Source: Candidatus Baldrarchaeum yapensis (GTDB taxonomy: Archaea; Asgardarchaeota; Baldrarchaeia; Baldrarchaeales; Baldrarchaeaceae). From it: DNA of 16,210 nucleotides. How positions within the stretch are numbered: the first letter of the stretch is position 1; the number at the start of each line of letters is the position of its first letter. Below, in pieces: positions 1 through 16,210 of the stretch. A model generated the notes under the pieces. It made no database searches, was not told the origin of the DNA, and was given only the letters and a program-made list of their open reading frames with translations. The translations under genes and the position numbers were made by a program. The stretch is taken from contig JAEOSH010000050.1 in NCBI GenBank assembly GCA_016840465.1, positions 1-16,210 on the forward strand, given 5' to 3'.

Positions 1-188
1 GGACATAATATTCTGTTAATTAATTACGATTTTGAATTCAATTTATATAATCAAATCTCTCTATCGTGAGAAAATGAGATTAATTTCACGCAGGATCACT
101 GGTGTTTTTGATGTTCCATTTAAAAGCAAATATTTGACCACCGAAAAATAAGAGTTGTAAGTGCAGGATGATGTGCCTAGAAATTTCA

Positions 189-776
189 TCACTTTACTTT
201 CTTTTTTGGAATCCTTACCTCAACGACTCTGTTCTTAAAGTTCACTTGCATTTTAGAGGTGTCGATGTCTTGTGGCAGTTGCGTTTCATGTATCAACCTT
301 CCATCGCAGTAAATCCTTATGGCTCCCTCATGCGGTTCAACTCTTATGCTTTCCTTGTCGGTCGTTGGAACTTCAGCTACGACTACCACCTCGTTGTTCA
401 TCTCTATTACGTCAAGGAGTAAGCTGTCGTTTTCGGTTTGCGGAAATGGCATCGGAGGGTTTATGGGAAACGGGGGCTCTGGAGCTGGTAATGGAAGCGG
501 CATCAGTGGAGGTGATCTTCTAGTATTGTCCTGCCGCGGTGCTTCTTCGATGTACTCGTGAACTTCGGGCTCTCTGCTCCTATCGGTGGATTTCCACTCC
601 CTGACTATCCTTCGTCCATCAGGAAGTATTACCTCTTCTCTTCCGTATGCGATATACCTTTGGAGGACCTTCGTGCCGATTTTATTGTCGATTTCGGGGG
701 TTTCTCTCATCAATGTGCGCAGGAGGCGATCGAAGAAACTCATGATTCTTTTTACATCTTCACTCCACCAGTACAT
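189..776 (-). CDS. Atypical small heat-shock (Hsp20/alpha-crystallin-like) protein with Pro-rich linker, 195 aa
   Basis: The C-terminal ~85 aa fit the alpha-crystallin pattern (LLLDVIEMNNEVVVVAEVP...VNFKNRVVEVRIPKK). N-terminal ILPDGRRIVREW resembles IGPDGKPVVREF of the hsp20 at 15213. Start moved from 785 to ATG 776 because GGAGGTGA (782-789, minus strand) lies 5 nt upstream. Confidence 0.78.
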   Translation of the reverse strand: MYWWSEDVKRIMSFFDRLLRTLMRETPEIDNKIGTKVLQRYIAYGREEVILPDGRRIVREWKSTDRSREPEVHEYIEEAPRQDNTRRSPPLMPLPLPAPEPPFPINPPMPFPQTENDSLLLDVIEMNNEVVVVAEVPTTDKESIRVEPHEGAIRIYCDGRLIHETQLPQDIDTSKMQVNFKNRVVEVRIPKKKVK

Positions 777-796
777 GATGGTCACCTCCTTGTGAT

Positions 797-834
797 GGTC
801 ACCATTTATTGACCAAGGTCATATAATGGTGACC
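797..834. promoter_or_regulatory. Double palindromic operator: two GGTCA-N8-TGACC units 2 bp apart
   Basis: GGTCACCATTTATTGACC (797-814), AA, GGTCATATAATGGTGACC (817-834). The whole 38 bp is itself a near-perfect inverted repeat. It lies between two divergent starts. Confidence 0.75.
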
Positions 835-842
835 TATATATA
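835..842. promoter_or_regulatory. TATA box, possibly bidirectional
   Basis: TATATATA between divergent genes, about 35 nt upstream of ATG 877 and directly next to the operator. Confidence 0.55.
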
Positions 843-876
843 AGTTTATCGCTAATCACATAATGAGGTGAGCAAC

Positions 877-1356
877 ATGGATATCGACGATTACATGAGG
901 TACATGGAGGAACTACTGGAGAGATTGCGAGTCTTGATGACGCAAAACTGCATAAGAATACTTCAAATGCTGGAAGAGCCAAAGTACTGGACACAACTTG
1001 TGGAAGAGTTGAATATGCACAGGTGGCTCGTTAAGAGATATCTAGATAAACTGCTTGAGGTCGGTTTGGTGGAGAGTTTCGTAAAACCGTCGGAACGTGG
1101 ACCACCTAGGCGGTATTACAGGCTTGCTAAAGAACTTGCTATCCTCTTTATAATATCATCGAATGGCGTTTTTATTCGTGAAATCCCCCTAAGTAGCAAT
1201 GAAGTTGCCATTCAGGAGGTTTTAAAGAAGTATCCATCGGTTAGGCGCATCCTCGAGATCGGGCAAGAAATCCCACACGAGGAAATTGAGAAGGAAATAA
1301 ATTCACTTACGCTAGCAATAAGACTTCTACTATCGTTGCGCAGATCCAAACGATAG
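877..1356 (+). CDS. Winged-helix (ArsR-like) transcriptional regulator, Phr/HSR1 heat-shock regulator-like, 159 aa
   Basis: wHTH pattern IRILQMLEEPKYWTQLVEELNM...YLDKLLEVGLVESFVKPSERGPPRRYYRL resembles Pyrococcus Phr (from recall). GAGGTGA precedes ATG 877. Divergent from an Hsp20-like gene. Confidence 0.75.
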   Translation: MDIDDYMRYMEELLERLRVLMTQNCIRILQMLEEPKYWTQLVEELNMHRWLVKRYLDKLLEVGLVESFVKPSERGPPRRYYRLAKELAILFIISSNGVFIREIPLSSNEVAIQEVLKKYPSVRRILEIGQEIPHEEIEKEINSLTLAIRLLLSLRRSKR

Positions 1357-1972
1357 ATTTTCGAAGAAAAATGAAGGTTGCTAATGTGTCATTGCGGAGA
1401 ATCTGCACTATTAAAATCTACCTATAATTTGGAAGTTACCGAAGTCCTCATGTTGATCGTGGCGTCGATCGCGTACTTCTTTATACCTTCGAATCTGAGG
1501 AATCGCGGGGGTATTTCCTCAGGATCTGGAGAGCGATCACTTTGAATTTGACGTACTTCGGCAAAACGCGTGGGCTCGACAGCGGAGCACATGCATTCTT
1601 GAGAATTCCCTAAGTAATTGAGGTGTTTCGTTAAAGAATTCCCTAAACTCTGTGTTACACGTTATTCTTTCGAGAAGCCTTAATGGTTTTTCATGTTTTT
1701 ATGGGGGAACCGCATGTCTATCTGCCTTCGTGGCTTGGATAAATACGTATGAGAAAGTTCAGTTTTTTGTCACTATACGTATCACGGATTCGGGCGGCGC
1801 GGTTTGTGCACAAAGAGAACGCAAATTTTGGACGAATTGATCTTCCGTGATAATGTTGCTGACGCAGGAGGATGAGTGCAGTTCTGAAAGAGAGGGACAT
1901 CCTCTCCTGTCAGTTGGTTGGCGGTATATATGAGTGCTGACCGCGCCCTTCTACTTTTTGCCCTACCTGTCA

Positions 1973-1989
1973 TAGGTAATCGTTACCTT
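1973..1989. promoter_or_regulatory. Palindromic operator resembling a DtxR/IdeR box
   Basis: TAGGTAA-TCG-TTACCTT contains perfect AGGTAA/TTACCT arms. With flanks (1972-1990) it matches 15/19 positions of TWAGGTWAGSCTWACCTWA. Confidence 0.45.
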
Positions 1990-2031
1990 GACGAAAGACA
2001 ACCTTTTGGTGGGGCCCAGTTCATCGAAGGA

Positions 2032-2038
2032 TTTATAA
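2032..2038 (+). promoter_or_regulatory. TATA box of the ECF operon
   Basis: TTTATAA preceded by purine-rich GAAGGA (BRE-like), about 45 nt upstream of ATG 2084. Confidence 0.55.
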
Positions 2039-2055
2039 GTATGTTCTAGGGTATG

Positions 2056-2072
2056 TAGGATAAAATATCCTA
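2056..2072. promoter_or_regulatory. Second palindromic operator over the predicted transcription start
   Basis: TAGGATA-AAA-TATCCTA is a perfect 7-bp inverted repeat with a 3-bp spacer, the same geometry as 1973-1989. Confidence 0.55.
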
Positions 2073-2083
2073 GAGGGCAAAAG

Positions 2084-2653
2084 ATGAACAGGGTGCAGGA
2101 ACTCTCTGTTACAGCGGTTCTTTCAGCGGCTGCTGCATCTCTAAGAATAATAAAGCATCTAATCGCCGGTCCAATACAGTTCGTGAATATACCCGCAGTA
2201 TTTGCGATAATCGGGGGCGCTGTTTTTGGAGCAAGGATCGGATTTTTAGTGGGGCTGTTTTCCTTTGTTATTTCCGACTTCATACTTGGACCAGGCCCTT
2301 GGACGGCGGTTAATTCTATACTTTGCGGCCTCATTGGTGTCATTTCATCGGTTCTATGGTACGGCGAGACGAGTGTAAGCAGACTTGAGGTAGGCGCAAC
2401 CACGTACTTACTATTGTTCATGAACGACATCCTTAACTCTATGATCCTCTATCTGCTGTTAGGATTTTCCATACAGCAAGCGGCCATCATATCGGTCGTT
2501 GGTTTGTTCTTACCAATTGCAGGTGGATGGATGTTTTTCGTGGGGCCAATCACCGAGGGAACCACATCAGTACTTGCCGCCACACTCATGCCAGAAATCA
2601 GAGAGAGGTTGCAATACGTGTTACCAACGGGTGAGAGCGTTGAGAGAGAGTAG
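2084..2653 (+). CDS. ECF transporter substrate-specific (S) component, possibly CbrT-like (cobalamin)
   Basis: 189 aa, highly hydrophobic. It has the ECF-S pattern (GPIQFVNIPAVFAIIGGAVFGARIGFLVGLFSFVISDFILGPGPWT). No EcfA/T genes in the window. Confidence 0.75.
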   Translation: MNRVQELSVTAVLSAAAASLRIIKHLIAGPIQFVNIPAVFAIIGGAVFGARIGFLVGLFSFVISDFILGPGPWTAVNSILCGLIGVISSVLWYGETSVSRLEVGATTYLLLFMNDILNSMILYLLLGFSIQQAAIISVVGLFLPIAGGWMFFVGPITEGTTSVLAATLMPEIRERLQYVLPTGESVERE

Positions 2654-2663
2654 AGCGTTTCTC

Positions 2664-3092
2664 ATGCTGACGGTGGCAATTCTCGTAACGATCTTAGGGG
2701 CATTCATCTCTCATTGGTGTCTAATGGAGAATGGAAAGTCACTGGCAATAAGCGGGGAATCCGGGGAAGGTATCTGGCCAAAATTAGTTTTAAACGTCAC
2801 AGTGGTGATAGACTATGAAAATGGTACTGTTGAGAGGCATATCATCGAGAGACTTTTCTATCCTCATGTGACCGTATTTGATGCGCTGATTGCAGTTGCA
2901 AATGTAAGCTATCGGTATTATGGGGATTTAGTTTTTGTAGAGGGGATTAATGGAGTGTTCAATAATGAGAATAACAATGGCCGATACTGGCAGTACTGGA
3001 TAGATGGAGAGTATGGGCAGGTTGCCGCGAATAAGTGTATTTTGAATAATTGTAGTGTTGTTGAGTGGAGGTACGTTCCTTCACAATTTTAG
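2664..3092 (+). CDS. Membrane-anchored DUF4430 (transcobalamin C-terminal-like) protein, 142 aa
   Basis: N-terminal hydrophobic anchor, then TVFDAL...YGDLVFVEGINGV...YWQYWIDGEYGQVAANKCILNNCSVVEWRY, typical of DUF4430. ATG 2664 lies 10 nt after the ECF stop, so the 2499 start in the ORF track is rejected. Confidence 0.75.
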   Translation: MLTVAILVTILGAFISHWCLMENGKSLAISGESGEGIWPKLVLNVTVVIDYENGTVERHIIERLFYPHVTVFDALIAVANVSYRYYGDLVFVEGINGVFNNENNNGRYWQYWIDGEYGQVAANKCILNNCSVVEWRYVPSQF

Positions 3093-3107
3093 GAGGTGAT
3101 AAACTAC

Positions 3108-3869
3108 ATGTTTAAGCGGAAAAGTTGCTCACACTGCCCACATCTGGTAATAGCGGCACTTGTGGTGTTCCTGCTATTGTTAATGGTGGTTTGCCCATCA
3201 GCATACGCAGTACCGACTGGTGGCTTGCCCATTAAGGAGGGGGACGAGTTTGTATGGGAAATTACGAGGGCGAATGGCTCACCAGCGTTCTGGTGGCATA
3301 CGTATCCCAATGGTAGCTACGAGACAATAACGTACACGTTCGAGAAAGGAGGCCTGCTGAAGTTTAAGATTACAAAGATCACCGAGGAAGAAGTGTACGG
3401 CTCATTAACTGTTGGGAACCTTACGCTTGACAACACCACGCTCTCCGAGATAAGTTGCAACTTAGCGCTTGCACCATGGCCCTATCACAAGGTATTCTCA
3501 CTAATGGTACCGACAGATTGGGAGTATCTCTCAAAGGTTGCACGTGAGAACATGAGTCTGACCGTGAGTGAGAGGGACATTTGGTACTTTACAGGGTCGT
3601 CGTTATGGCATCTACACGTGGTTATTATTAGCGGGACGTTTAAGGGGTTTGCCGAACAACAGGTCTATCTCGTATATGATAAGCAGAGCGGAGTGTTAAT
3701 CGAAGGGATGGGCAAATTTGGCAACTTTGAGATATACCTAGAACTGAGAGATGTGAAAAGTGATGCCTTCAGACCCTTGAACTTCATACTTGTGATTGTA
3801 GGTGTTTCCATAGCCGTTGTGGTTATTTTGATCGCAGCACTGAGTTTAAGAAGAAGGGTGCCCAAATAA
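3108..3869 (+). CDS. Secreted/surface protein with signal peptide and C-terminal transmembrane anchor, 253 aa
   Basis: GGAGGTGA (3092-3099) overlaps the upstream stop. Basic n-region, hydrophobic h-region, AYA cleavage site. Aromatic beta-rich body with YDKQSGVLIE. C-terminal TM followed by RRRVPK. Confidence 0.7.
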   Translation: MFKRKSCSHCPHLVIAALVVFLLLLMVVCPSAYAVPTGGLPIKEGDEFVWEITRANGSPAFWWHTYPNGSYETITYTFEKGGLLKFKITKITEEEVYGSLTVGNLTLDNTTLSEISCNLALAPWPYHKVFSLMVPTDWEYLSKVARENMSLTVSERDIWYFTGSSLWHLHVVIISGTFKGFAEQQVYLVYDKQSGVLIEGMGKFGNFEIYLELRDVKSDAFRPLNFILVIVGVSIAVVVILIAALSLRRRVPK

Positions 3870-3982
3870 TCAAATAATCCTCATTCTTCAATATTTTTAT
3901 TTGTGATCCATTATCTAAATCGTGTTTCTCATAAAATGCATGAATACGTACGTACGAGTAGCAAGATGAGCGAGGTCACCAC

Positions 3983-4381
3983 ATGAGTTCAGCTTCACGC
4001 TACAAGGATTGGTTCTCGGAGGCGGAGGACGATTTTAAAGCGGCACTTCTATTAAAAGAGGGAAAAATGTATGGGAAGGCTTGTTTCTTTGCGCAACAGG
4101 CTGCGAAGAAGGCTTTGAAGGCATTACTTTTAAAATTGTATAAAACTTACGAAGATACGCACAGTGTAATGAAATTATTGTCAAAGCTAAGCGGGTTTTT
4201 GAAATTAGACGATAAATTGCGCGCATGTGCACAGTTACTTGATAGACATTACCTTCCCCCTAGGTATCCGAATATGTGGCCATCTGGTGCACCTCATGAA
4301 TTTTATAACGAGGGGGATGCCGAGGAGGCGATCGACTGTGCAAGAAGAATTCTTGAACTCGTTAGACGGCATATTACATGA
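3983..4381 (+). CDS. HEPN domain protein (HEPN-MNT toxin-antitoxin-like pair)
   Basis: WFSEAEDDFKAA...ACFFAQQAA-KALKALL...HSVMKLL...LDRHYLPPRYPN...AEEAIDCARRIL. GAGGTCA precedes the ATG. Confidence 0.9.
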   Translation: MSSASRYKDWFSEAEDDFKAALLLKEGKMYGKACFFAQQAAKKALKALLLKLYKTYEDTHSVMKLLSKLSGFLKLDDKLRACAQLLDRHYLPPRYPNMWPSGAPHEFYNEGDAEEAIDCARRILELVRRHIT

Positions 4382-4802
4382 TATTAAGAGAAGGAATCCC
4401 TCATTTGATGAAATTGATGGTTTAAAGAAACTAATACTTGAGATACTTCGCAAATATAAGCCAAAAGCCATTATAATAGCGGGATCGCTCGCTGAGGGAA
4501 AGTGGATAAGAGGGATGAGTGATATTGATATTCTTGTCATAACAGATGCTGTTCGGGGCGAGAAACTCACTATGCGCTCATTCATTACTAGCATAAACGA
4601 GGTTGATGCGCAGGTTTCTATGTTTACGGAAGAGGAAGTTTTAATGGGCATGGACAATTTGAACTTCTTCTTCATTTCGGCGATTTATTACGGGATTCCC
4701 GTTTATGGTAGTGAATGTTATCAAAGGCTCAAAATGCATTTAGAGAAAATGATTTCGGAGCGTAAAATCAAGAGAACAGAATATGGTTGGGTTTTTGAAT
4801 AG
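4338..4802 (+). CDS. Minimal nucleotidyltransferase (MNT), partner of HEPN; start uncertain (GTG 4338, ATG 4317 or TTG 4353)
   Basis: IIIAGSLAEG...SDIDILVI carries the pol-beta GS...DxD motif. Overlaps the HEPN 3' end. GAGGAGG (4322-4328) precedes GTG 4338. Confidence 0.85.
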   Translation: MQEEFLNSLDGILHDIKRRNPSFDEIDGLKKLILEILRKYKPKAIIIAGSLAEGKWIRGMSDIDILVITDAVRGEKLTMRSFITSINEVDAQVSMFTEEEVLMGMDNLNFFFISAIYYGIPVYGSECYQRLKMHLEKMISERKIKRTEYGWVFE

Positions 4803-4821
4803 AAATTAGGAGGGCCCCATT

Positions 4822-6688
4822 TCACTCGGGAAGTTTTATGTCCTTGGTATATTTTTCAAGCCCTAATTCCCTTACTTTACTCCTTGTCGGTCTTCCGTCC
4901 TTCCATCCTCTGAGTTTATAGTACTCCCCGAGCATTCTATCCAAGTGAACCACTTGGCCCTTCGATAGGCCTCTGGGTATGGGTTCCTCCAAGAACCTCT
5001 TCGGAAGAGTATCGTATTCCTTACCGTCGCCGAAACTTTTCACGTTAAATATTCTCTCGGCGTTGTATATCCTTTCTCCGATTTTTAGGAGTTCTTTCCA
5101 TGTTATGTCCCATCCGGTTACTGCTCCGAGTACCTCCGCAAGGTGTGGAAGTTCAAAGACATACGTTATGAACTCGCAAACTATCATGCTATCGACGGCG
5201 GCCTTAAGGTTCTGAGAGTACACGACAAGTTTTGCCCTGTTTTCTTCTGATAATCTATCGGGATATTCGAATAGGGCGTAGATCTCCCTCTTAATGGTAT
5301 ATCCCCTCAAATGGCAACCTCCTCTATTACTGGTGGCATAGGATAGTGCTTGTCCTTTCGCACCCCTGGGATCGTAGGCCGCCCATGTTTGCTTCCTCAC
5401 GGTGGGCGCTATATCGGTCATGTTATATTTCTTTGCAAGTCTGTATGCCCCCCTCGGCTAGCAGGTTTCCGATTCCTTTCCTATAGGCTATTAGCTCTAT
5501 AAGCCTGAAAACGGCGTCTTCATTCCCCCATACCGGCTTTAGTCCCTCAAGATCACTCAACTCGGAGTCTTTAATAATTCCTCTCTCGTATAACTCGAAG
5601 AGGAGACCGATGGTACCTCCGAGTTCTATGGTATCCAATTCCAGTTCGTTTGCCATATAATTTACCTTAGCGACCGCCTTTAGGTTGAACATTTCCAAAT
5701 TTGCTCCGAGCATGGCAAGGGTTTCGTACTCTGGGCCCGCCCCTTCTCCCTTATACTTCTCGTCCTCAACCCTAGTGTACTTGCCGCATCCCATTGGGCA
5801 ATAAGCGCATGGGTCATTGCTTACTAGGATCGTTGCCGCCATAAGTTCCCTACTTATGTTATGGGCTAACTCGTGGTATCCGTATCTGAAGTTTCTTACC
5901 GGGAGTATACCTGCTTCGTTGATGAAAGTTATGGCCATAGGTGTTCCAAGTATCGGGAATATTGCAGTTGCTACGGCGTTTTCTCCGATAATTTTTCAGA
6001 TGGTGCTTAACTACCTCCCTGAACCTTTCTTCATCCTTCATCGAGGGTCTAAGGGTGCCCCTCACGGCTATTGCCTTTAACTTCTTAGAACCCCAAAACC
6101 GCCCCATGACCTCCCCTTCCGACTGCTCTTCCTCCATCCACCATCAGAGATGCGTACAACACCTTGTTTTCTCCAGCCGAACCTATTGAAAGCACGCTCA
6201 CCTTCTTGTCTCCCAGTTCCTCCTCAATGATTTTTGTTGTTTCTCTAGTGGTTTTTCCCCACAGGTCTTTAGCGCTTCTTATTTCGACCTCCCCATCACG
6301 TATCCATATCCAGACGGGCTCCTCTGACGCCCCCTCAATTATAATTCCGTCAAATCCGGATTGCTTGAGTTATGCCCCAAAGTGACCCCTGCGTGAGAAT
6401 CGTGGACTGTTTCGGTCAAGGGGGACTTTGTGACGCTAACCCATCTTCCAGACGTTGGATATCTCGCGGCGGTGACCAGTCCTGTGAGGATGAACAACTT
6501 GTTTTCCGGGCTCAGGGGATTGACTTTCGGATTCACTTCCTCCAGCATATACCATACTCCGAGACCCCGTCCCCCCACCCACTTTCTTAGCACATCCTCC
6601 TTGGGCAGTGATTCGATGGATACCTTTTTCTTAGTTAGATTCACGCGTATAATTTTCCCCAGTATCCTCCCGGATATTCATCCGTCAT
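4822..6688 (-). pseudogene. aor: Tungsten aldehyde:ferredoxin oxidoreductase family gene, disrupted
   Basis: Reassembled pieces read GGYWGKIIRVNLT..WVGGRGLG..KSPLT..SHAGGHFG..GFDGIIIEG..GRGGHGAVLGSKKLKAI..GPEYET..ELDTI..YDPRG..NRGGCHL, about 621 aa. Lesions: single-base indels at 6653-56, 6386-89, 6091-94, 5992-96 and 5448-53, plus an in-frame TAA at 6370-72. Confidence 0.92.
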
Positions 6689-6704
6689 ATATTTCACCCG
6701 CTGG

Positions 6705-7187
6705 TCATTCTAATGCTTCTGACGATGGTATTTGGGACGATGCGACCGCCTTTCGCATGATTGCCTTGTAGGCCTCTCTTGTTATGATTATATCTGTTGA
6801 CAGTTTTCTTCCCATCAGGAAAGCTAAAAGTATCCCAATTAGAAACGCCACCACCGCGAAGATTGCGTTCAATAGTATTGAGTACTCCTTGAGAGGTGTT
6901 GCTTGGGATGTAAGCATGTACACTCCGCATAAGGTGGCTATAAAGAGAATTGCCTGTGGTGCTATGAATTTCACTGGCAATTTTAACTCTTTTATTCTTA
7001 CGAAGAACTCAGCATCCGAGGAGTCCCTTAAGAGAGCCCTGCCATCGAGCAAAATCACAACCCTAGCCCTTCCGGGAATCACGGCTGCAATCGCGCCGGA
7101 TATGAATCCTCCCACGAGCGCAATGATCATACCCACAAATTCGGGAGGAGGTCCCAGAATTCCCGGCATGTCCATCCCCACCAGCAT
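6705..7187 (-). CDS. Hypothetical membrane protein, about 3 TM helices, 160 aa
   Basis: Three hydrophobic segments (MIIALVGGFISGAIAAVI; AILFIATLCGVYML; ILLNAIFAVVAFLIGILLAFL). The stop lies 16 nt before the aor start, so co-transcription is likely. Confidence 0.65.
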   Translation of the reverse strand: MLVGMDMPGILGPPPEFVGMIIALVGGFISGAIAAVIPGRARVVILLDGRALLRDSSDAEFFVRIKELKLPVKFIAPQAILFIATLCGVYMLTSQATPLKEYSILLNAIFAVVAFLIGILLAFLMGRKLSTDIIITREAYKAIMRKAVASSQIPSSEALE

Positions 7188-7316
7188 TTATCCTCTTTAA
7201 TTTATTGCAAGCAAAATGTAAAGGTTACGGGGATGTGTATGGACGTTTTACTCGTTTTGTGTCTAATTCCGAATTATCATCGCCTATTAATGCCCCATAC
7301 ACTATCATTCGGGTTG

Positions 7317-8912
7317 TCAACTGGTTAGAAGACTCTCTTTTGCGTATACTATTTTGCCACCGACAATGGTCATTTCTACCTCTATTTCGTCAATTTTGCC
7401 CTTTGGAACCTCGAAGGGGTCCTTTGACAGAACAACTAGGTCTGCAAACTTCCTTGGCTCTATGCTTCCCTTTTTATTTTCATCAAACGAAGAATATGCT
7501 GCATTTATAGTATACATTCGGATTGCCTGATTGACACTTAGGGCCTCCTCTGGGAAGAATCCGTTTCTCTCGACCGCTGCCCTTATTCCCGATAGTGGAT
7601 TTATTGGTTCAACCGGGCAGTCGGAGCTCCCAGTTAGGAGTATACCGTTATCGATCATTGTTTTGAACGGGTATACGTGCCTTATCCTTTCAGGTCCGAG
7701 TCTACTGGGTAACCATTCCTTATCGGACACTATGAAGTGTGGTTGAACAGATGCGATAACTCTTAGCCTTCTCAGGCGTTTAATAAGGGATGAATTGAGC
7801 AGGGAGGCGTGTTCAATGCGGTGTCTGTGATCTTCCCGTGGAAGTCTTCTTAGCGCCTCCTCTATAGCATTAAGGGCCACTTCAACGGCTTTATCTCCTA
7901 TACAATGTATAGCGACTTGGATTCCATCTTTATGTGCCCTATATACGATCTCGTTGAGCGTTGTCTGATCGAACCAAAGGATTCCTGTGTTGTCCGGATC
8001 ATCGCTGTAAGGTTCCGTCAGAGCCGCTGTTCGCGCCCCTAAGCTTCCATCTAGTATTATTTTCAATGCTCCCAAACTCAGATAATCCTTAGATCGTTCG
8101 AACTCTTTCTTTAATTTTGAAACGTGATGCAGTAGGTTTACAAATGGAAGTATGTGAACCCTTAGTGGCAACTCTTTACTTTTAAGCATTCTTTGGAATG
8201 CCCTGATTTCTTGAATCGACTTTACTATACAATGCACGGACGTTAATCCGTGGCGTATGGCTTCCTTGCACGCCGCTTTCAGAATCTCATATAGCCTTTC
8301 ATCGGAAAGGGGGATTGCGCTTGTAACCATCATGGCTGCTGTTTCCTTTAATATTCCAGTCGGCTGGCCTGTTTTCGGGTCTTTATCTATCTCTCCACCG
8401 GGTGGTGGCGGTGTTTTCTCTGTTATGTTGAGTTTTTCGAGAGCCCTACTATTAAGAGTACATACATGCCCGCATACGCGGAATACGACTACAGGGTTTT
8501 CAGGAGATGCCTCGTCGAGGTCCCATCGCGTGGGAGGTCTTTTTTCCGCCAGTTTACCTTCATCCCATCCAAAGCCGATGATCCACTCATCTTTTTTCGC
8601 TCTTTTAGAAAAGTCAGATATTTTTTCCTTCATTTCAGCGATAGATCTCACATTCTTGAGGTTAATGGATGATAGAAGCAACCCATATTCTGTAAGGTGG
8701 ACATGCGTATCTATGAATCCTGGGAGAACAGTTTTTCCTTTTAAATCTATCACACGAGTACTTTTACTCACTAGAGACAGTATTTCTTCGCTTGTGCCAA
8801 CTGCAAGAATTTTTTCTCCTCTTATAGCTATCGCTTCGGCCCTCGGCAGCTTATCGCTCATTGTTATGACGTTTCCGTTAATTAAGCAGATATCCACGCC
8901 ATTCTTATTCAT
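7317..8912 (-). CDS. Metal-dependent amidohydrolase, YtcJ/Amidohydro_3 family, 531 aa
   Basis: DLKGKTVLPGFIDTHVH, KIILDGSLGARTAAL, QVAIHCIGDKA, RHRIEHAS, GSSDCPV and KGSIEPRKFADLVVL motifs. Confidence 0.92.
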   Translation of the reverse strand: MNKNGVDICLINGNVITMSDKLPRAEAIAIRGEKILAVGTSEEILSLVSKSTRVIDLKGKTVLPGFIDTHVHLTEYGLLLSSINLKNVRSIAEMKEKISDFSKRAKKDEWIIGFGWDEGKLAEKRPPTRWDLDEASPENPVVVFRVCGHVCTLNSRALEKLNITEKTPPPPGGEIDKDPKTGQPTGILKETAAMMVTSAIPLSDERLYEILKAACKEAIRHGLTSVHCIVKSIQEIRAFQRMLKSKELPLRVHILPFVNLLHHVSKLKKEFERSKDYLSLGALKIILDGSLGARTAALTEPYSDDPDNTGILWFDQTTLNEIVYRAHKDGIQVAIHCIGDKAVEVALNAIEEALRRLPREDHRHRIEHASLLNSSLIKRLRRLRVIASVQPHFIVSDKEWLPSRLGPERIRHVYPFKTMIDNGILLTGSSDCPVEPINPLSGIRAAVERNGFFPEEALSVNQAIRMYTINAAYSSFDENKKGSIEPRKFADLVVLSKDPFEVPKGKIDEIEVEMTIVGGKIVYAKESLLTS

Positions 8913-9948
8913 GTTTTCGCCACTCTCGCATTGCTTTCGTAATGCTTGCAGAGATTTTACTATGAAGGGGAGTTTCTCCCAGTAATAACTGTTGCTCGAT
9001 TGATCAAGGAAAACCTCACTGTTACATCACCAACAGCAGTCGATATGGCACGAGTTCACATTTCTAAATAATAACCGAGCGCGTCGGAATCTACTCTTTA
9101 ACTTCCGAAAATTTCTCTATCTTTGCATAATTGATGCAATGCGCTACAAAACTCCGGTTCGCTGAAAAGATTTGCTTAAATATTTCGTACTCATCAAGCA
9201 AGAGGTAGAAGTTTCGAATGAGTGATGAGGATGAGCATTCTGAGACGCGTGAAGGTCTATAATTTCAGGAGCATAAGGGAAGTGGACGTGGAGTTAAAGC
9301 CGCTCACAATATTTGTTGGCCCTAATGCTGCGGGGAAGTCTAGATTCTGTATGCGATAGCGTGGCTGGCGCTTAGGGCCACGTATAATCCTCACCTCGGT
9401 AGCCAACCACATGACGTTGAGAAGAAGTTGCTGAAAATAGAATCTTATGATGACCTTGCGCTCAATCGAGACCTCTCTAAGGTTTCTATAGGAGTGGAGA
9501 TAACATTCGAGTTGCCGCCCGAGTTAAAGTCCAATTTTAAGAGACTGATCAATATGATCGATTGGCCGATGCTCTCGGGGTTGAGAAGCCGGAGCTTAAG
9601 GTTCTGAGTTACGGTTTCAGGATAAGCAAAAAGAACAAAATACTCTACTGCGACATTTCCCTTTCATTGAATGGTGCTAAGATGGAGATCTCGTCGGAAT
9701 ACGACTCGGTTACGGATACCACGGTCTGGACGCTGAAGTTTCCGCCGCATTACAACATAAATGGTATGGGTAAGCTTAATTATGAACTCTTTGGGAAGTT
9801 AGACATTCATCTAAGAGTTGTAGAGGCAAAATCACCACTTAGTGAGAAAGAAAGCAATACTCTTGAAAGATTAGATTACTTCATCGAGAGGTTGCTGAGG
9901 TATGTGAGGGATAACCTCATAGTTGGAAGGATATTTCTCCTAACCGTT

Positions 9949-10130
9949 CTGACTCTCCGCCACTTTTGTTGCAATTAACGCGTGTGTGGCGGAGAGCCTT
10001 CCCGTCTCGGGGTCCATCGACGGGCTTTCGCGGGGAACGGTGCTCCGCACATCCATCTGCCCCCTTTGCTTCGCCCTTTCGGGCTTCCCTCCCTCTCACC
10101 GTCCCTCCCACATCCCGAGCGGAGCCCGCT
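9949..10130 (-). ncRNA. Candidate structured RNA, omegaRNA/reRNA-like; ends approximate
   Basis: GC-rich, with a GCCC-GAAA-GGGC tetraloop hairpin (10073-84), a CCCGUC/GACGGG hairpin with tandem G.A pairs (10001-24), long-range pairs 10119-25/10042-48 and 10098-105/10034-41, and a terminal 11-bp stem. TATA about 20-25 nt upstream. Confidence 0.55.
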
Positions 10131-10148
10131 TAACACAACGGAACCGTC

Positions 10149-10163
10149 CTTTATAAGGGTTTT
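10149..10163 (-). promoter_or_regulatory. TATA box inside the mini-element, pointing at the structured RNA
   Basis: The minus strand reads AAAACCC-TTATAAAG. The predicted start near 10125-10131 coincides with the start of the GC-rich folded segment. Confidence 0.55.
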
Positions 10164-10931
10164 AAAGGTTTTGAGGTTGCAAAGGTGCATGGGGGCAACA
10201 AATGCAACACTATACGTTTCTGCCCCACTCAGGGGAGATGTGCCGATTTGCTCACTCGTGGATTTAGACGTATCTGTTGGGGCCTCACGGCGAAAACCTG
10301 CTGAACGCCGCGGCATACGCTCTTGCCCATCACGACCTCTCCATAAGGATGAAGTTGGGAGAGTGGATAAGGCGGTGGTCCGAAAGGTCCGGACTTAAGA
10401 ACTTCTGTGCGGGTCCCGAGAGAAACGTGATAAGGGCCTCATTCAAGGACTTAGATGCGGTTCTCGACTTGGCGATGGGCAGTTTTGGGAGCAGGCAAGT
10501 AGCGACTATGATCACGCAACTTATAGTGACGCCACGTCGGAGCGTTGTTATGGTAGAGGAGCCCGAGTTATGCCTCCATCCCGAGGCGCAGACTCTACTT
10601 CCGTTGCTCTTCGCAGATGAGATGTGATAAAGAAGCATGACAAGCAAGTTATTATTACCATGCACAGTAACATATTGATACTGGCGTTGAGCGATGCGGT
10701 AATGAGATCCGAAGAGTATCCCGATGTTCCGAGGCTGAATGACGATGATATTGCCCTTTATCACGTACCAGAGGGCCGGATGGGAGCACCAAAGTGGAGC
10801 GTATAGAGCTATCGGAGGAGGGACTTCCGGTCGGGGGAGTACCTTCCTTCATGGAGGTTGAACGGAGACTTTTCATGAGACTCATATCTAGATTAAAGTC
10901 CCGCATGTAGTATATCGTAGGAGTAGTGGTG

Positions 10932-12170
10932 CTATGGTCCGATGTGCCCGATGCTTGTCTGAACTATCACTTTTTTGAGTCCCGCGTTCTCCAATACTTC
11001 CTTTACCATCAACATGTCATCAACGGTGGGTCGTGGCATATTCCACTTTCGGAATTCTCCTCGGTAGTCGAGAACACAAACCTGAATGTCGGGGTCTATT
11101 TTTGCGATTTCCAGCCCCATCTTGTAGATCTCATCGAATGTGGGGTGGAATTCCCGGTTATAGGGTATGCCTATTCCCATGAAGACCTTATCCGGGTAAT
11201 AGTTGTCGGCGATGTATCGTACCGCCTCCCACTCCGTCTTTAGATACTTCTCCGCCAATTCTTTATCCGTAATGTTCGTTATCAGTTGGAAGGTCTCCAG
11301 TTTCAGCGCCTTGATATCCGGTCCTATATCAGTGATCCCCGTGTCTTCTATCAGTTCGTCGATATAGTCCTTTGTCAGGATAGTCGCATTTGTGTCGAGA
11401 TGAAATCTCGCTTTCTCATCTCTATTCAGCTTCCTCAATTCTTTGAAGAACTGCACAAGCCAACGTCTATTTATCGTGGGTTCCCCGCCGCTTATTGCCA
11501 TCCGGTGAACTCCATATCTTCTGCGGTAACTTGTCAAGATGCGCGCGGCCTCCTCGGGCGTCAATGGGCTTAGAGAACTGTTGTACGTCACATGGTAATT
11601 CTGGCAGGTGGGGCACCTCAGATTGCAACCAGCAGCGAACGCCGCCACTTCTATATACTTCCCCTCGTATTTCAACCAATATGGCGTCCCCACACCACCC
11701 ACCGGATGAGGACTGAAGCCCTCTACTATTCTTAGTGGAGTGATTCCTTCCACATTCGTGCAGATCTCCATACCCTCTCTAACTGGGGTGTGACATGCGG
11801 GTTTTAACTCTCCATCAACGAGAACCGCGCACGCATAACATCCTCCCGTGTTACAGGGTGCAAACATTTTTCCCGGTTCAGGATAGCGCGTAAACACGTA
11901 CCCTAGTATTTCAAGCGCCTTTTTTACTGTTATGTACTCGGGAACCTCGTACTCCACCCCATCCACCTTTATCTTTATATATCTTCGCTCACTCTTATCC
12001 TCGACTGGAATTCTGGCGTAGTATGGGCAAGCAAGGTAGCACGCCTCACATCCTATGCATCTTTCGGGGCTCGGGCATTTAACGATCGTTTCGCAAAATC
12101 CGCATTTCACACATTTTGTCGGATCCACTACGTACTTAAAGAAGCGCATTTTGTCTTCCCGCCCGTGCAT
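10932..12170 (-). CDS. Radical SAM protein (PFL-activase-like) with N-terminal 2[4Fe-4S] ferredoxin and [2Fe-2S] domains; alternative start 12149
   Basis: CVKCGFC...CP and CIGCEACYLACP (ferredoxin); PCNTGGCYAC...PAC (2Fe-2S); GCNLRCPTCQN (CxxxCxxC); ISGGEPT; LDTNA. Confidence 0.88.
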   Translation of the reverse strand: MHGREDKMRFFKYVVDPTKCVKCGFCETIVKCPSPERCIGCEACYLACPYYARIPVEDKSERRYIKIKVDGVEYEVPEYITVKKALEILGYVFTRYPEPGKMFAPCNTGGCYACAVLVDGELKPACHTPVREGMEICTNVEGITPLRIVEGFSPHPVGGVGTPYWLKYEGKYIEVAAFAAGCNLRCPTCQNYHVTYNSSLSPLTPEEAARILTSYRRRYGVHRMAISGGEPTINRRWLVQFFKELRKLNRDEKARFHLDTNATILTKDYIDELIEDTGITDIGPDIKALKLETFQLITNITDKELAEKYLKTEWEAVRYIADNYYPDKVFMGIGIPYNREFHPTFDEIYKMGLEIAKIDPDIQVCVLDYRGEFRKWNMPRPTVDDMLMVKEVLENAGLKKVIVQTSIGHIGP

Positions 12171-12449
12171 CTCACCTATCCTCTAAACATTTAACATTTA
12201 ATTGAAGTCTTTCGTAATTTTGTTTAACGCCATACACTTTATTCTCAACAGTAGAAGAGTTCTAAATTCAATTCTGCTACACTGTTCAATTTTCGACGTG
12301 TAGACGGCATATCATCGTAACTAGAAAGTTCATACGGTTTCCCTTGACGCTGAGGTCGGGAGACTATTGACAGTAAAGTTAATGTAGTTGTATCTTCCGT
12401 TTTAAAATATCAGGTGCGATTTCCGTTAAACCTGTTGGAGGACAAAGTT

Positions 12450-13157
12450 GTGAGTGGAGATGTGAATAAGGTAGATGAGGCATTACGCATTCTTTCGAAA
12501 GTTGAAGAGATCTTAAGAGGTCTAAGGGGTTCTATCGAGCAGGCGGACCGTATAAGATCGGAGAACGAGGCGCTGAAATCCGATTTGGAAAAATTGAAGG
12601 CGGAGGTTGAGCGCAGGGATCTACGCATAAAGGATTTGGAGAACGAAAATAACGAATTAAAAAGCAAATTAAAGGAAAAGGAGGAAGAAGTGAAGAGATT
12701 AAGTGAGAGGGTTGCATCTCTGGAGGACGAAAATCGTAGGCTTGAGCAAGAACTAAAAATTACCAGAGAAAACCTGTCTAATGTTGAGAAGTCCAAGAAG
12801 GAGGTGGAAGAAGAAAATAAAAAGTTAAAAGACGAGCTTAATAAAATATCTGAGCAACTTGAAAAAATTTCGAAAATGTACGGCGAGTTAACACGTGAAA
12901 GGGAAAGAGTAGAAAGCGTAAGAGAACTTTTAACTATCTATGTAACACTACTTGAGACAGTCTTTGCGGGTATGCCTCATGCTAGGATTCTCTGGCTACT
13001 GCATGGCGTTCCTAAAATGAAGAGAGCGGAGATAACCAAAGCCTCCGGATTTGAGCCTGCTGTCGTGCTCAAGAGCATTCATGATCTTGAAAGAGCTGGG
13101 CTTGTGAGGTTTAATAGGCAGAAGGATGAGGTTCATCTTCTAAGGAAATTATTTTGA
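12450..13157 (+). CDS. Long coiled-coil protein with C-terminal winged-helix domain, about 235 aa
   Basis: About 130 aa of E/K/L-rich heptads, then PHARILWLLHG..KRAEITKASGFEPAVVLKSIHDLERAGLVRF (wHTH). GGAGG (12437-41) favours GTG 12450 over 12414. Confidence 0.8.
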   Translation: MSGDVNKVDEALRILSKVEEILRGLRGSIEQADRIRSENEALKSDLEKLKAEVERRDLRIKDLENENNELKSKLKEKEEEVKRLSERVASLEDENRRLEQELKITRENLSNVEKSKKEVEEENKKLKDELNKISEQLEKISKMYGELTRERERVESVRELLTIYVTLLETVFAGMPHARILWLLHGVPKMKRAEITKASGFEPAVVLKSIHDLERAGLVRFNRQKDEVHLLRKLF

Positions 13158-13185
13158 CAGACCTACTGCCAGTCATTGTATTGTA

Positions 13186-13640
13186 CTATTCTTGTAATTT
13201 GATCCCGAACGTGCAGATGTCCCCAATCCCCCACCTTATGTTTTTCTCCACGGCATCTATCGAAACTTTAGGCGTTCGCCCTCCTATGGCATCGACGAAT
13301 CCTAAAAGAAGTCCCGGGACGACGCATGCGGTTCCCTCAAATTCGTAGCCACCAACACGTTTCGGACAAAAGTGATAACCCTTTACCTTTATGCGGAGAA
13401 TTTCGTCTCTATATTAACCTCGACCTCATCAGCAAGGTCTATGACTTTCAGGAGATGTTCTATTTTCTCATTTATGCTCTTTTTGTCCCAATCTGGAGTG
13501 TTACTAAAGGTTTTTGCGTGTTCAATGCCGGCGTGGTAGCTTGCGATCGTTACTATTCCCTGCACGGACTTTCCCGAAACAGTACTCATTCCGTAAGTAA
13601 ACCCAATGTTACAATGTGCGAGTATGTTGAGTTCTTTCAT
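13186..13640 (-). pseudogene. V4R-like small ligand-binding domain protein, one frameshift, about 151 aa when repaired
   Basis: The 83-aa ORF continues after a -1 shift near 13414 as (K)YRDEILRIKVKGYHFCPKRVGGYEFEGTACVVPGLLLGFVDAIGG...GDICTFGIKLQE, ending at TAG 13186-88. C..PGLLxGF and C.F.I match the V4R pattern. The 3' half is absent from the ORF track. Confidence 0.62.
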
Positions 13641-13723
13641 GTTCTCCCCCTTAATGTTCTGTCAGTGGAATGAATCAAATAAAATATAAATATGTCGGTT
13701 CTTCAAGTCGATTGCTGGCGCGA

Positions 13724-14296
13724 TCACTTTCGTGGCATCGCTATTATTTCTCTTATCTTTAGGTCGGAAAACATTCTGGAAATGTCGGTTGATTTTATCA
13801 TGACGGCGGTATCGGCTCCTCGTCTCGTCCCCGCAATTGCTATTACGTCCGTGTTTGAGGGAATGGCCCCCGCCGCGACCGCCATCAGAACTATTTCGAC
13901 GCATACCTTCATACCTTGACAAAACATTCTCAGTGTCGCATTAACTATGTCTATGGGATCCCCTCCGCGTTCCCTGAATGCTCTGGGAACCATTGTGAAC
14001 ACATCTGTGCCTATGACTAGTGTCCCACCTTTCTTTGTTATCTCATCGGCGAATTCCTTTTTCAGGGCTATCTCTCCGGGCTTTAGAAAGCCGTACTGAT
14101 GCGTTACAACGACGACTTTGATGCCAGAATCCTTAAACATGTCGACGGCCTTTACTCCCGTCTCGCCGGTGGTTGAGGCGACGACGACATACTTGATTCC
14201 TCGTTCCTTAGCCCTCTCCAACGCGGCTCTCAGGGTTGCATCCGTATTTTGGGGGCCGGGCGAATCGAAATATATTATTTTTTCCTCGACTGACAT
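13724..14296 (-). CDS. Pyruvate kinase C-terminal-like (PK_C, MTH1675-type) conserved archaeal protein
   Basis: IIYFDSPGPQNT...YVVVASTTGETG...VVVVTH...LRMFCQGMKVCVEIVLMA...IAIAGTRRGADTA...KIREIIAMPR. Confidence 0.85.
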   Translation of the reverse strand: MSVEEKIIYFDSPGPQNTDATLRAALERAKERGIKYVVVASTTGETGVKAVDMFKDSGIKVVVVTHQYGFLKPGEIALKKEFADEITKKGGTLVIGTDVFTMVPRAFRERGGDPIDIVNATLRMFCQGMKVCVEIVLMAVAAGAIPSNTDVIAIAGTRRGADTAVMIKSTDISRMFSDLKIREIIAMPRK

Positions 14297-14366
14297 TTAG
14301 ATCCCTACCCACTACTGGTACACTATCTGAACTTTTAATGGAATATTACGTTTGTGGTAACGCGGG

Positions 14367-15104
14367 ATGAAGCATATGCCAAGCTCGGAAGATGATATAG
14401 TTGAGATATTGCAGACGAACAAGGTGAAGCGCGACAGGGCGATAAAAATAGCAAATAAACTTTTAAATCTCGGAGAAGTGGAGTATCTCGCAAAAGGCAC
14501 GAGTTTCGTTGTTTTACTTCTCCGGACGCCGGAGGGTGATCGGAGAGTTGTTAAAATAGAGAAGGATGATATTACGGCGAGCGGTGCTGCATGTAAAGAG
14601 GCGCATTTTTTACGGATCGCAAACAGCATTGGAGTCGGGCCGCGACTGTACTCTTATGATCATGACCTTCGTTACCTAATAACGGAGTATTTTGATGGGG
14701 AGTTTATTATCGATTTTCTGCTCAGGGAGAAAGATGCTGAGAAAATTCGCAAAACCGTGATCAGTGCTCTGATGGACGCTTTTAGACTCGATGAGTTAGG
14801 TATCACGCATAAGGAGCTTGCATCACCGAAGAGGCATATAATAGTGACTAACGAGGGGCCGAAGTTTATAGATTTTGAGAAGTGTAGCAAGTCCAAGAAG
14901 CCGAAGAACCTGTCGCAACTCGTGCAGTTCTTTTTCTTGAATCCAAAATCTCCGTTCAGGGGCAAAATTTTTTCCATTTTCGGGTTAAAGGATGATGATG
15001 TCAACAAACTCGTCGAATTAATCCGCGAATATAAAAGGACGGAGAAAAAATCGGAAATTTTTCGGAGGATTCTGCAAATACTCGGGCATTCGGGTCCCAT
15101 TTGA
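14367..15104 (+). CDS. Archaeal Ser/Thr protein kinase (Bud32/RIO-like, COG2112-type)
   Basis: YLAKGT (Gly-rich loop), VVKI (VAIK-like), KEAHFLRIANSIGVGPRL, ITEYFDG, GITHKEL, FIDFE. Confidence 0.82.
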   Translation: MKHMPSSEDDIVEILQTNKVKRDRAIKIANKLLNLGEVEYLAKGTSFVVLLLRTPEGDRRVVKIEKDDITASGAACKEAHFLRIANSIGVGPRLYSYDHDLRYLITEYFDGEFIIDFLLREKDAEKIRKTVISALMDAFRLDELGITHKELASPKRHIIVTNEGPKFIDFEKCSKSKKPKNLSQLVQFFFLNPKSPFRGKIFSIFGLKDDDVNKLVELIREYKRTEKKSEIFRRILQILGHSGPI

Positions 15105-15212
15105 AAATTGCCGCGAAAGTTCCGTTGCATTATATGTACGAACTTGCTTCATTAGAAAGTTTCATGTAGTCGTGGTAATAACATCAATAGTTAGGCAAAC
15201 GGGGGGAAGTCG

Positions 15213-15758
15213 ATGCGCGAAAGAAGGCGAAGATGGTGGCCGTTTGACGAAATTTTCGAGGAAATGAGAAGGATTTTCGAAGAGATAGAGGAGAGTATTT
15301 TCCGTGAATGGGAAGAGTTCGAAAGGATGCTTCCTAGAACAAAAACTCCATCGGGAGTGGAAATACATGGTCCAATTGTCTGGGGCTGGTCGCTGACCAT
15401 AGGTCCTGACGGAAAGCCCGTAGTAAGGGAGTTCGGCAACCTCCCACGGCCCTACGAACTCAGAAGGGGTCTAATAAAGGGCACACGTGAGCCGCTAATC
15501 GACGTGATAGAGGGAGATGAGGAGATTATCGTCGTTGCTGAGACCCCTGGGGTTGAAAAGGACGAGATAGAGTTGCATGCGACGGAAAGAGAGCTTGAAA
15601 TAAAGGCCGGTGATAAGTACTATAAGAAGTTAGAGTTACCAACTGAGGTAATCCCCGAGAAGGCAAAGGCGACATATAAGAATGGTGTTCTCGAAATAAG
15701 GATTCCGAGAAAGACCCCGAAGGAGAAACCAAAGGGAACTCGGATAAAGGTCGAATGA
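15213..15758 (+). CDS. hsp20: Archaeal small heat-shock protein Hsp20
   Basis: WWPFDEIFEEM..., GPIVWGWSLTIGPDGKPVVREFGN, EPLIDVIE..VVAETPGVEK, ATYKNGVLEIRIP, and a C-terminal IKV motif. Confidence 0.93.
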   Translation: MRERRRRWWPFDEIFEEMRRIFEEIEESIFREWEEFERMLPRTKTPSGVEIHGPIVWGWSLTIGPDGKPVVREFGNLPRPYELRRGLIKGTREPLIDVIEGDEEIIVVAETPGVEKDEIELHATERELEIKAGDKYYKKLELPTEVIPEKAKATYKNGVLEIRIPRKTPKEKPKGTRIKVE

Positions 15759-15838
15759 TCCCCGTACTTTCACACCTCCCATCCTATTTATTCATAGACC
15801 GTTTTTGATGGCTTTCACGCCTTGGCAAAAATAGAAAT

Positions 15839-15846
15839 TTTTATAT
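15839..15846 (+). promoter_or_regulatory. TATA box of the thermosome gene
   Basis: TTTATATA-like box after A-rich AAAAATAGAAA, about 55 nt upstream of ATG 15902. GGAGGAGG ribosome-binding site at 15887-94. Confidence 0.55.
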
Positions 15847-15901
15847 AGAAGTGCTAATCAAGGAGTCTTTCGGCTGAGCATAAAATGGAGGAGGATTTGA
15901 T

Positions 15902-16210
15902 ATGGCAACACAGGGAATCCCCGTCATAATCCTGAAGGAAGGAACCCAGAGAGCGGTCGGACGCGACGCGATGCGGTCCAACATAATGGCCGCGCGCATA
16001 ATTGCGGAGGCCGTCAGAACGACCCTAGGTCCAAGAGGAATGGACAAAATGCTTGTTGATAGCCTCGGTGACGTGACCATCACGAACGACGGCGCGACGA
16101 TTCTGAAGGAGATAGACGTGCAGCACCCCGCTGCGAAGATGATGGTGGAGGTTGCGAAGGCGCAGGACAATGAGGTCGGCGACGGGACGACCACGGCCGT
16201 CGTCCTCGCG
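15902..16210 (+). CDS. ths: Thermosome (group II chaperonin) subunit, 5' part; runs off the window end
   Basis: Translated by hand (missing from the ORF track because it has no stop): [17 protein letters not shown]...[63 protein letters not shown]. Confidence 0.98.

Follow-up and report, generated by a model that had tools for sequence, protein, structure and literature searches.

The 16,210-nt stretch of Candidatus Baldrarchaeum yapensis DNA analysed here (contig JAEOSH010000050.1 of assembly GCA_016840465.1, positions 1 to 16,210; hereafter, the window) carries a decayed gene for an AAA_15/AAA_21-type ATPase that is interrupted by a 279-bp insert. Coordinates are those of the whole window, and the transposon sense of the insert is the window minus strand. 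The insert is a sharply bounded block with a GC content of 57–60%, compared with ~42% in the flanking gene, and no credible open reading frame (ORF) was found in it. Its overall layout is that of a transposon left end of ~68 nt, which includes a TATA-like box, fused to the last ~200 nt of a tnpB gene and the right end. Positions 9946–10224 are very probably a copy of a protein-free, non-autonomous derivative of the IS607 family, and this is the best explanation of the locus as a whole.

The state of the host gene was assessed against an intact ATPase homologue of 481 aa (P0001), retrieved at 57% identity from a large-database search with the downstream piece of the gene as the query; the piece upstream of the insert had no match among longer proteins. 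A search of 400 genomes in the phylum with the host gene yielded only distant ATPases (29–45% identity). Relative to P0001, the host gene runs through frames 3, 2, 1, [insert], 1, 2, 1 and 3, that is, it contains five frameshifts besides the insert. Because the neighbouring genes are intact, as is another ATPase gene hit by a copy of the element once that copy is removed, we regard the host gene as a pseudogene and not as an assembly artefact. The ATPase gene is already decayed apart from its interruption by the window copy. An earlier note on this DNA had proposed that exact removal of the insert repairs the host gene and had envisaged intact homologues without the insert. P0001 is such a homologue; as for the repair, the local frame is indeed restored, but the gene is not, given the five further frameshifts.

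Table 1. Features of the interrupted ATPase gene and of the insert, in window coordinates.
Feature	Position	Strand	Basis or remarks
Host gene, AAA_15/AAA_21-type ATPase pseudogene, element-interrupted	9237..10904	+	tblastn of P0001; Pfam matches of P0001 and of the gene pieces
G-run with a one-base shift of the host frame, 17 codons past the insert	10279..10282	+	Frame 1 ...VSVG, then frame 2 GPHGEN...; both align to P0001 DVGVRGEK
Inserted DNA, 279 bp	9946..10224	-	Family alignments (14 own-genome copies and relatives); frame and zero-gap spacing to P0001
Element proper, CAGAAACG... (left end) to ...GTCAGAAC (right end), transposon sense	9946-10222 (277 nt)	-	Plus one 2-nt core copy = 279 nt
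Core dinucleotide where the right end meets the flank: CC (+ strand), GG in transposon sense	9944..9945	.	
CCCC (+ strand), GGGG in transposon sense	10223..10226	.	Core GG (10223-10224) and two target-derived G (10225-10226); resembles a target-adjacent motif (TAM)
Left end with GTTGCA-type motifs; homologue of the tnpA-proximal end in full-length IS607 elements	10157..10222	-	Last ~31-47 nt of the BLAST query match the parent and other elements
TATA-box-like TTATAAA, preceded by an A-rich stretch resembling a B recognition element (BRE)	10150..10156	-	Predicted promoter; near-invariant in mini-element copies
9-bp tandem duplication	10158..10166	.	Common only to the window copy and the truncated C80 copy; missing from other full copies
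GC-rich (65%) 5' part of the predicted RNA	10061..10149	-	Hairpins GCCCGAAAGGGC and CGGGCUCCGCUCG, G-tract run
Right end and conserved scaffold core, ~115 nt, homologous to full-length elements at their tnpB 3' end and right end	9946..10060	-	84.5% identity to the parent on contig C96 over 110 nt; conserved in metagenome-assembled genomes (MAGs) of several archaeal phyla
Helix A	10029-10033 / 10045-10049	-	Column 48/66 is CG in 13 and GC in 11 sequences
Helix B	10001-10006 / 10019-10024	-	3/6 pairs with both-side changes; 95% of cells paired
Helix C, terminal 11-bp stem	9953..9996	-	First hairpin of the earlier note; 5/11 pairs with both-side changes; column 121/148 is UA in 12 and CG in 10
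Subterminal imperfect inverted repeat TTTGTTGCA (TTTGTTGCAATT / AAATGCAACAAA)	9965-9976 / 10195-10209		~20-30 nt from each tip
Predicted ~20-nt guide UUAGGAGAAAUAUCCUUCCA, antisense to the host gene	9924..9943 (template 9943-9924)	-	By position only, in analogy with TnpB omega RNAs

Genomic copies and the full-length parent

The assembly to which the window belongs comprises 100 contigs (2.27 Mb, 45.9% GC, 96% complete). BLAST of the insert against it returned 22 matches, 12 of which are full length, 85–94% identical and placed in unrelated flanks. Identity without gaps is 95–99% within subfamilies and reaches 99% for the pair on contigs C55 and C89. Sizes in this family of mini-elements range over ~266–279 bp, the copies other than that in the window measuring 266–269 bp with the core dinucleotide included. 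Three copies lie at contig ends, as expected, since repeats break assemblies.

Two partial BLAST matches on contig C96 (query positions 1–110 at 84.5% identity, and 247–277) are the two ends of a 1.85-kb element (C96:26176–28021); its left-end match covers ~31–51 nt at 80–90% identity. Two genes lie between these ends, on the strand opposite to the orientation adopted in the earlier note. TnpA (204 aa, L023:737–1351) is a serine recombinase that matches the IS607 transposase model NF033518 with 237 bits (cut-off 110) and contains the Pfam domains Resolvase (PF00239, 91.6 bits) and HTH_17 (PF12728, 53 bits). TnpB (436 aa) is intact and matches NF040570, the RNA-guided endonuclease TnpB, with 162 bits (cut-off 100). 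When aligned to solved TnpB/Cas12f structures, its RuvC D/E/D motifs (GVDVN, ALESL and ADRD) fall on the catalytic positions, and its best match in the PDB is the mimivirus TnpB-like protein L79. The genome carries two more TnpA and TnpB pairs, both distant, and the 3' regions of its other TnpB genes have no alignable ends. The Y1 transposase domain (PF01797) had no match in this 96%-complete genome in a search that was positive in 6 of 14 control genomes.

Because the C96 element has its ends in common with the mini-elements and encodes a serine TnpA, and because no Y1 transposase was found in the genome, we assign the mini-elements to the IS607 family as deletion derivatives. This assignment bears on several proposals of the earlier note. 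Its core idea, a protein-free, non-autonomous derivative of an IS200/IS605 or IS607 element, stands for IS607 and falls for IS200/IS605, given the serine-recombinase parent and the search for Y1 that found no match. The additional copies with common ends and the longer parent with tnpA, tnpB and both ends that it foresaw exist in the genome. The traits that had suggested IS200/IS605, namely a pentanucleotide target, TCAN ends and two subterminal hairpins in single-stranded DNA (ssDNA), were not upheld.

Other members of the group vary in their interior and in their size. At C82:5702–5958 (locus L026, about 1203–1459), a second mini-element has a left end of 48 nt that is ~96–98% identical, a similar terminal stem, the ...CCAGAAC-GG terminus, a TATA-like box of its own and a preceding GGGG, with a GC-rich interior that is unrelated. 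This arrangement suggests that scaffolds may be swapped between the same transposon ends. An element of only ~74 bp in the Thermoproteota MAG Kor3 (L085) consists of the left-end tip (GGGG-GAGAAATGTATAGTGTTGGATTTGTAGCAT...) and the terminal ~25 nt of the right end; TGTAGCAT is repeated in it, and it may mark the minimal recognition sequences of TnpA.

Junctions and host-gene reading frames

Read in transposon sense, every copy has the form flank-(G)GGG-CAGAAACGTATAGTGTTGCAT ... GTGGCGGAGAGTCAGAAC-GG-flank. The terminus reads AGAAC-GG in each of 32 elements, relatives from other genera and phyla among them, and G precedes the left end at positions −1 (19/19), −2 (19/19), −3 (18/19) and −4 (15/19). 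Terminal inverted repeats are absent, and there is no target duplication beyond the identical GG core at both junctions, the flanks being otherwise unrelated. The predicted empty site of the window copy is ...CTAA-CC-CC-ACTCAGG... (GAGT-GGGG-TTAGG in transposon sense), with the joint ...GAGTGGGG|TTAGGAG... in transposon sense, or ...CTAACC|CCACTC... on the + strand. Past the GG core, the right-end flanks are T/A-rich, with T at +3 in 19 of 32 and GG-TTA(A/G) frequent, which hints at a wider target preference, perhaps roughly GGGG-TTA.

The family alignments place the insert 3 nt to the left of the interval 9949–10227 proposed in the earlier note, because GTT at 9946–9948 belongs to the conserved terminus ...AGAAC. 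They also show that the dinucleotide common to both junctions is CC (GG in transposon sense) and not CT, and that the CCGTT pentanucleotide taken for a target site is the reverse complement of ...AAC-GG, in which the right-end (tnpB-3') terminus AGAAC meets the GG core. Of the two end hairpins described, the one at 9953–9963 / 9986–9996 is exact (11 bp, 22-nt loop), whereas the other amounts to just 6 bp with a bulge (GGGGCA/TGCCCC) and is weaker or gone in other copies and in the parent. The AGG(T) repeats at ~9-bp spacing are present, but as three 12-nt units spaced by 9 and 8 nt and not as four; one of the units exists because of the 9-bp tandem duplication. Likewise, TGAG before the element and TCAG inside it do occur on the minus strand, but the former is not conserved among copies and the latter is not the terminus. 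The subterminal inverted repeat, whose right-end copy falls within the loop of the terminal RNA stem, provides candidate binding sites for the helix-turn-helix domain of the recombinase. GTTGCA is not significantly enriched across the whole window.

Reading frames of interrupted genes bear on the same boundaries. With the insert removed, the joined sequence LLT(V/P)LRGDVP...VSVG aligns to LLTGSRGWMP...DVGVRGE of P0001 without gaps and with 11 identities in 27 positions (hand count). The score of the joined alignment is 41–42 when 279 nt are removed, compared with 28–33 when 278, 281 or no nucleotides are removed. The C89 copy splits an archaeal ATPase gene whose N-terminal half corresponds to PF01637 positions 1–56 and whose C-terminal half corresponds to positions 109–224, and only the removal of the element plus 2 nt (269 nt) yields a single ORF, of 563 aa. 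At least two ATPase genes are disrupted by mini-elements. The C96 parent lies inside a sulfatase-like gene (L023:17–706 and 2527–2700; ...RVPLIICGG | ...LKHKVIDIKASLIDLAPT). Most other copies lie outside recognisable genes, and tests for spanning ORFs in the relatives L078, L080, L087, L091 and L073 gave weak or mixed results. A circle-junction model with four G, by which 281 nt would be removed, is ruled out by the frame in the window and C89 copies, though it would fit the parent.

The junctions were compared with those of CboIStron, in which TnpA_S requires a GG core and prefers TGGG, the same TGGG is the TAM of TnpB, and the guide-RNA scaffold ends in ...UCGG, with C at −3 guarding the element's own right end from self-cleavage (bioRxiv 10.1101/2023.11.20.567912). 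Here, (G)GGG takes the place of TGGG, and ...ACGG that of ...UCGG. In common with IS607 elements and CboIStron, the mini-elements have the GG core at both junctions, a G-rich motif 5' of the left end, a right end in ...CGG and neither inverted repeats nor a duplication; their ends are those of an element with TnpA_S and TnpB in the same genome. Unlike IS607 and CboIStron, they are protein-free, only 266–279 bp long, lack a group I intron and reside in an archaeal host, and their predicted left-end promoter is directly joined to a scaffold from the tnpB 3' end. The end rules for this archaeal IS607 group are a GG core, an (N)GGG left flank and the terminus ...AGAAC-GG.

A conserved scaffold and a predicted promoter

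The right-end region was aligned across own-genome copies and relatives from a DNA search of the phylum and a pattern scan (one genome per species). The scan gave 20 matches, in MAGs labelled Asgardarchaeum, Baldrarchaeota, Thermoproteota, Geoarchaeota, Caldarchaeum, Bathyarchaeia and Archaeoglobales. In full-length elements, the scaffold stretch still codes for the TnpB tail ...DVGSTVPPESPSMNPETGRLSAT..., and the translation of 10061–10149 has weak similarity to the RuvC-III region of TnpB.

Three helices are conserved in this region, with 93.7% of cells paired across 27 sequences. Both-side changes occur in 10 pairs, compared with 4.2 ± 1.1 in shuffled alignments (0 of 500 reach the observed value) and 2–4 in slid controls. 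A 19-sequence alignment, in which 14 pairs are changed on both sides, agrees with this result. The exact hairpin of the earlier note is helix C, the terminal stem of the guide-RNA scaffold, and not an ssDNA recognition hairpin. From these comparisons we infer that the ~115-nt stretch is an omega-RNA-type scaffold located at the tnpB 3' end, in tnpB sense, and ending at the transposon boundary, with predicted TnpB binding and cleavage. A cmscan of positions 9500–10700 against Rfam 15 on both strands (E ≤ 1) returned only a chance miRNA match (22 bits, compared with a gathering threshold of 80), and the scaffold, backed by covariation, is not covered by Rfam. Its core has a GC content of 61%, and the stretch between the box and the core 65%, compared with 56% and 49% for the parental equivalents. 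Such an enrichment would fit selection for RNA stability in a thermophile. A G-tract run in the predicted RNA, GGGAGGGACGGTGAGAGGGAGGG at 10098–10120 (minus strand), falls in its 5' part and could form a G-quadruplex.

The TATA-like box has counterparts in full-length relatives, whose left ends contain TTTAAATA and TTTTATAAAG shortly before tnpA. Its distance from the left-end tip is that of TTTTATAAAG in the full-length elements L080, L092 and L091 and in the mini-element L078. The left end up to the second box is retained, fused to the scaffold, in the mini-elements of this genome and in independent mini-elements of three other MAGs (G003, L078 and L087). Transcription from the box would start near 10125.

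In TnpB omega RNAs, the guide begins directly past the right end (bioRxiv 10.1101/2023.11.20.567912). For the 14 predicted guides, no second genomic target was found with up to 1 mismatch, which fits homing to the self site. For the C11 copy, the predicted guide TTTAACAACCTCATTGCT matches, with 2–3 mismatches, a repeat at C89:88741–88766 and C74:266–291 that stands directly after GAGGG, a notable TAM-like context; the similarity, CTGAGG(G)TTTAACAACCYCATTSCTC, extends over only ~26 nt, and about one match of this type is expected by chance over 14 guides.

A related arrangement has been reported for the IS607 element ISFba1, where the omega RNA (also termed reRNA) of TnpB derives from RAGATH-18 and the TAMs are AGGAG or GAGGG (PMC11061315). 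In both systems, an IS607 tnpB carries a structured RNA at its 3' end, and the guide is drawn from the flank. The scaffold described here, in contrast, has no Rfam match to RAGATH-18, and its sequence and helices represent a separate archaeal type.

How the mini-elements may move and persist

We hypothesize that the serine TnpA of the full-length element excises the mini-element in trans as a circle with the junction ...AGAAC-GG-CAGAAACG..., and that the circle would insert at GG within (N)GGG. The internal left-end promoter would transcribe the scaffold and read out across the right end, and the resulting omega-type RNA would take ~20 nt of flanking DNA as its guide. The site vacated by excision (GGGG and the flank) could then be cut by intact TnpB acting in trans, and repair from a copy still occupied would help to retain the element. 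In bacterial IS605 and IS607 elements, cutting of the empty site by TnpB drives re-copying of the element (bioRxiv 10.1101/2023.11.20.567912; bioRxiv 10.1101/2023.03.14.532601). Tentatively, and with somewhat less than even confidence, we read the 12 or more promoter-equipped guide-RNA cassettes of this Asgard-type thermophile as each programming a single cognate TnpB in trans against its own empty site, so that they would encode nothing and yet be kept by RNA-guided homing. The cassettes would be modular, as in the C82 element, and the occurrence of the scaffold in Asgard, Thermoproteota, Bathyarchaeia and Archaeoglobales MAGs would imply exchange between phyla.

Stand-alone omega RNAs, and omega-RNA-bearing palindrome-associated transposable elements (PATEs) that rely on TnpB and TnpA in trans, have been described (PMC10691335; bioRxiv 10.1101/2023.03.14.532601). 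Like them, the mini-element is a protein-free mobilised unit that keeps transposon ends and a guide-RNA scaffold alongside effector-bearing elements in the same genome. Those described are mainly of the IS200/IS605 type, with Y1 transposases and ssDNA hairpin ends, whereas the mini-element is bounded by IS607 ends, and a serine recombinase would move it as double-stranded DNA. Classical miniature inverted-repeat transposable elements are likewise short and non-coding, occur in many copies, are mobilised in trans and can enter genes; the mini-element differs from them in having neither terminal inverted repeats nor a target-site duplication. While IS607 biology and stand-alone omega RNAs and PATEs are already known, the archaeal, promoter-fused IS607 version and the new scaffold family are added here. 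The mini-element is a natural example of an IS607 element pared down to ends, promoter and guide RNA. If its RNAs act in trans, the TnpB system would have guide-RNA-only parasites in an archaeon, and the compact TnpB, the scaffold and the G-rich TAM could be tried as a thermostable editor.

Several observations weigh against RNA-guided homing or against parts of the model on which it is built. Promoter function, the transcript ends and the association with TnpB are predictions. No empty-site allele was found, and of the genomes compared none other belongs to the genus or family of this one. The sulfatase frame around the parent is restored by removing 1847 or 1850 nt, compared with the 1848 nt predicted by the GG-core model, and the full-length relative L092 fits +1/+4 and not +2; these one-base disagreements could reflect register slippage in G-runs or later 1-nt changes in dead genes. 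The pattern that fetched the distant relatives fixed the 3' arm of helix C. Strand asymmetry is weak (46 G-U compared with 30 A-C cells), and single-sequence folding, with z about −2 on both strands, is uninformative on the strand; because the G-U and A-C counts barely favour one strand, the RNA sense rests on tnpB homology and the promoter. The covariation stems largely from the comparison of full-length elements with mini-elements, and therefore the RNA could be functional only in the former. A different explanation is that the mini-element is a mobilisable but RNA-dead relic whose ends TnpA moves in trans, while the scaffold is a functionless tnpB passenger that TnpB does not use. A possible pseudoknot between the helix A loop CCGUUC (10035–10040) and the terminal GAACGG (9944–9949) in the window copy shows no covariation, with a C-A mismatch in 7 of 19 sequences, which favours the relic; covariation is, however, uninformative here because both motifs are nearly invariant in the family. 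The 74-bp element of L085 points in the same direction, since such tiny, ends-only relatives imply that the scaffold is unnecessary for mobility. Nevertheless, compensatory changes also occur inside the mini-element subfamilies (C27, C28 and C76 in helix C), the high GC content of the interior relative to the equivalent coding stretch of the parent is in the direction expected of a stable RNA in a thermophile, and the TATA box is kept in independent mini-element lineages of other genomes. We consider a relic of this kind rather unlikely.

The two remaining explanations concern the nature of the insert itself. An IS200/IS605-type PATE would be moved as ssDNA by a Y1 HUH transposase that inserts it 3' of CCGTT and recognises subterminal hairpins. 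It would account for the conserved pentanucleotide adjoining one end, the perfect subterminal hairpin at that same end and the lack of both inverted repeats and a target duplication. It is nonetheless largely refuted, and we regard it as very improbable: PF01797 was not found in the genome, the parent with common ends encodes a serine recombinase, AGAAC-GG is kept as element sequence in all of the relatives, and the hairpin at the other end is not conserved. Moreover, targets of IS200/IS605 elements lie beside the left end, which here is preceded by (G)GGG, and CCGTT is found at the tnpB-3' end instead. Still less credible is an intron-like insert, either an IStron or an archaeal bulge-helix-bulge intron, that would be removed from RNA to restore the host message. 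The length of 279 nt (3 x 93) and the frame kept on removal agree with this idea, but the other copies, at their sizes of 266–269 bp, are not multiples of three and mostly lie outside recognisable genes, no Rfam intron family, including group I, was matched at E ≤ 1 on either strand, the element is antisense to the host gene, and that gene is a pseudogene.

Two further loci contain possibly rearranged members of the family. The copy at C28:4604–4869 adjoins the C-terminal half of a short-chain dehydrogenase gene (GKIINISSVAG...Y..ASK), which starts directly past the right end. The N-terminal half of that gene was not found on the other side of the copy, which gives no junction information and suggests a deletion or rearrangement at the element. 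At C76:22491–24413 (locus L024, about 692–2614), a 47-nt left-end piece is separated from the remainder of a diverged mini-element by 1.68 kb that contains an ORF with a V4R domain (PF02830, 32.9 bits) in transposon sense; this locus represents either a derivative with cargo or a mini-element into which other DNA has inserted.

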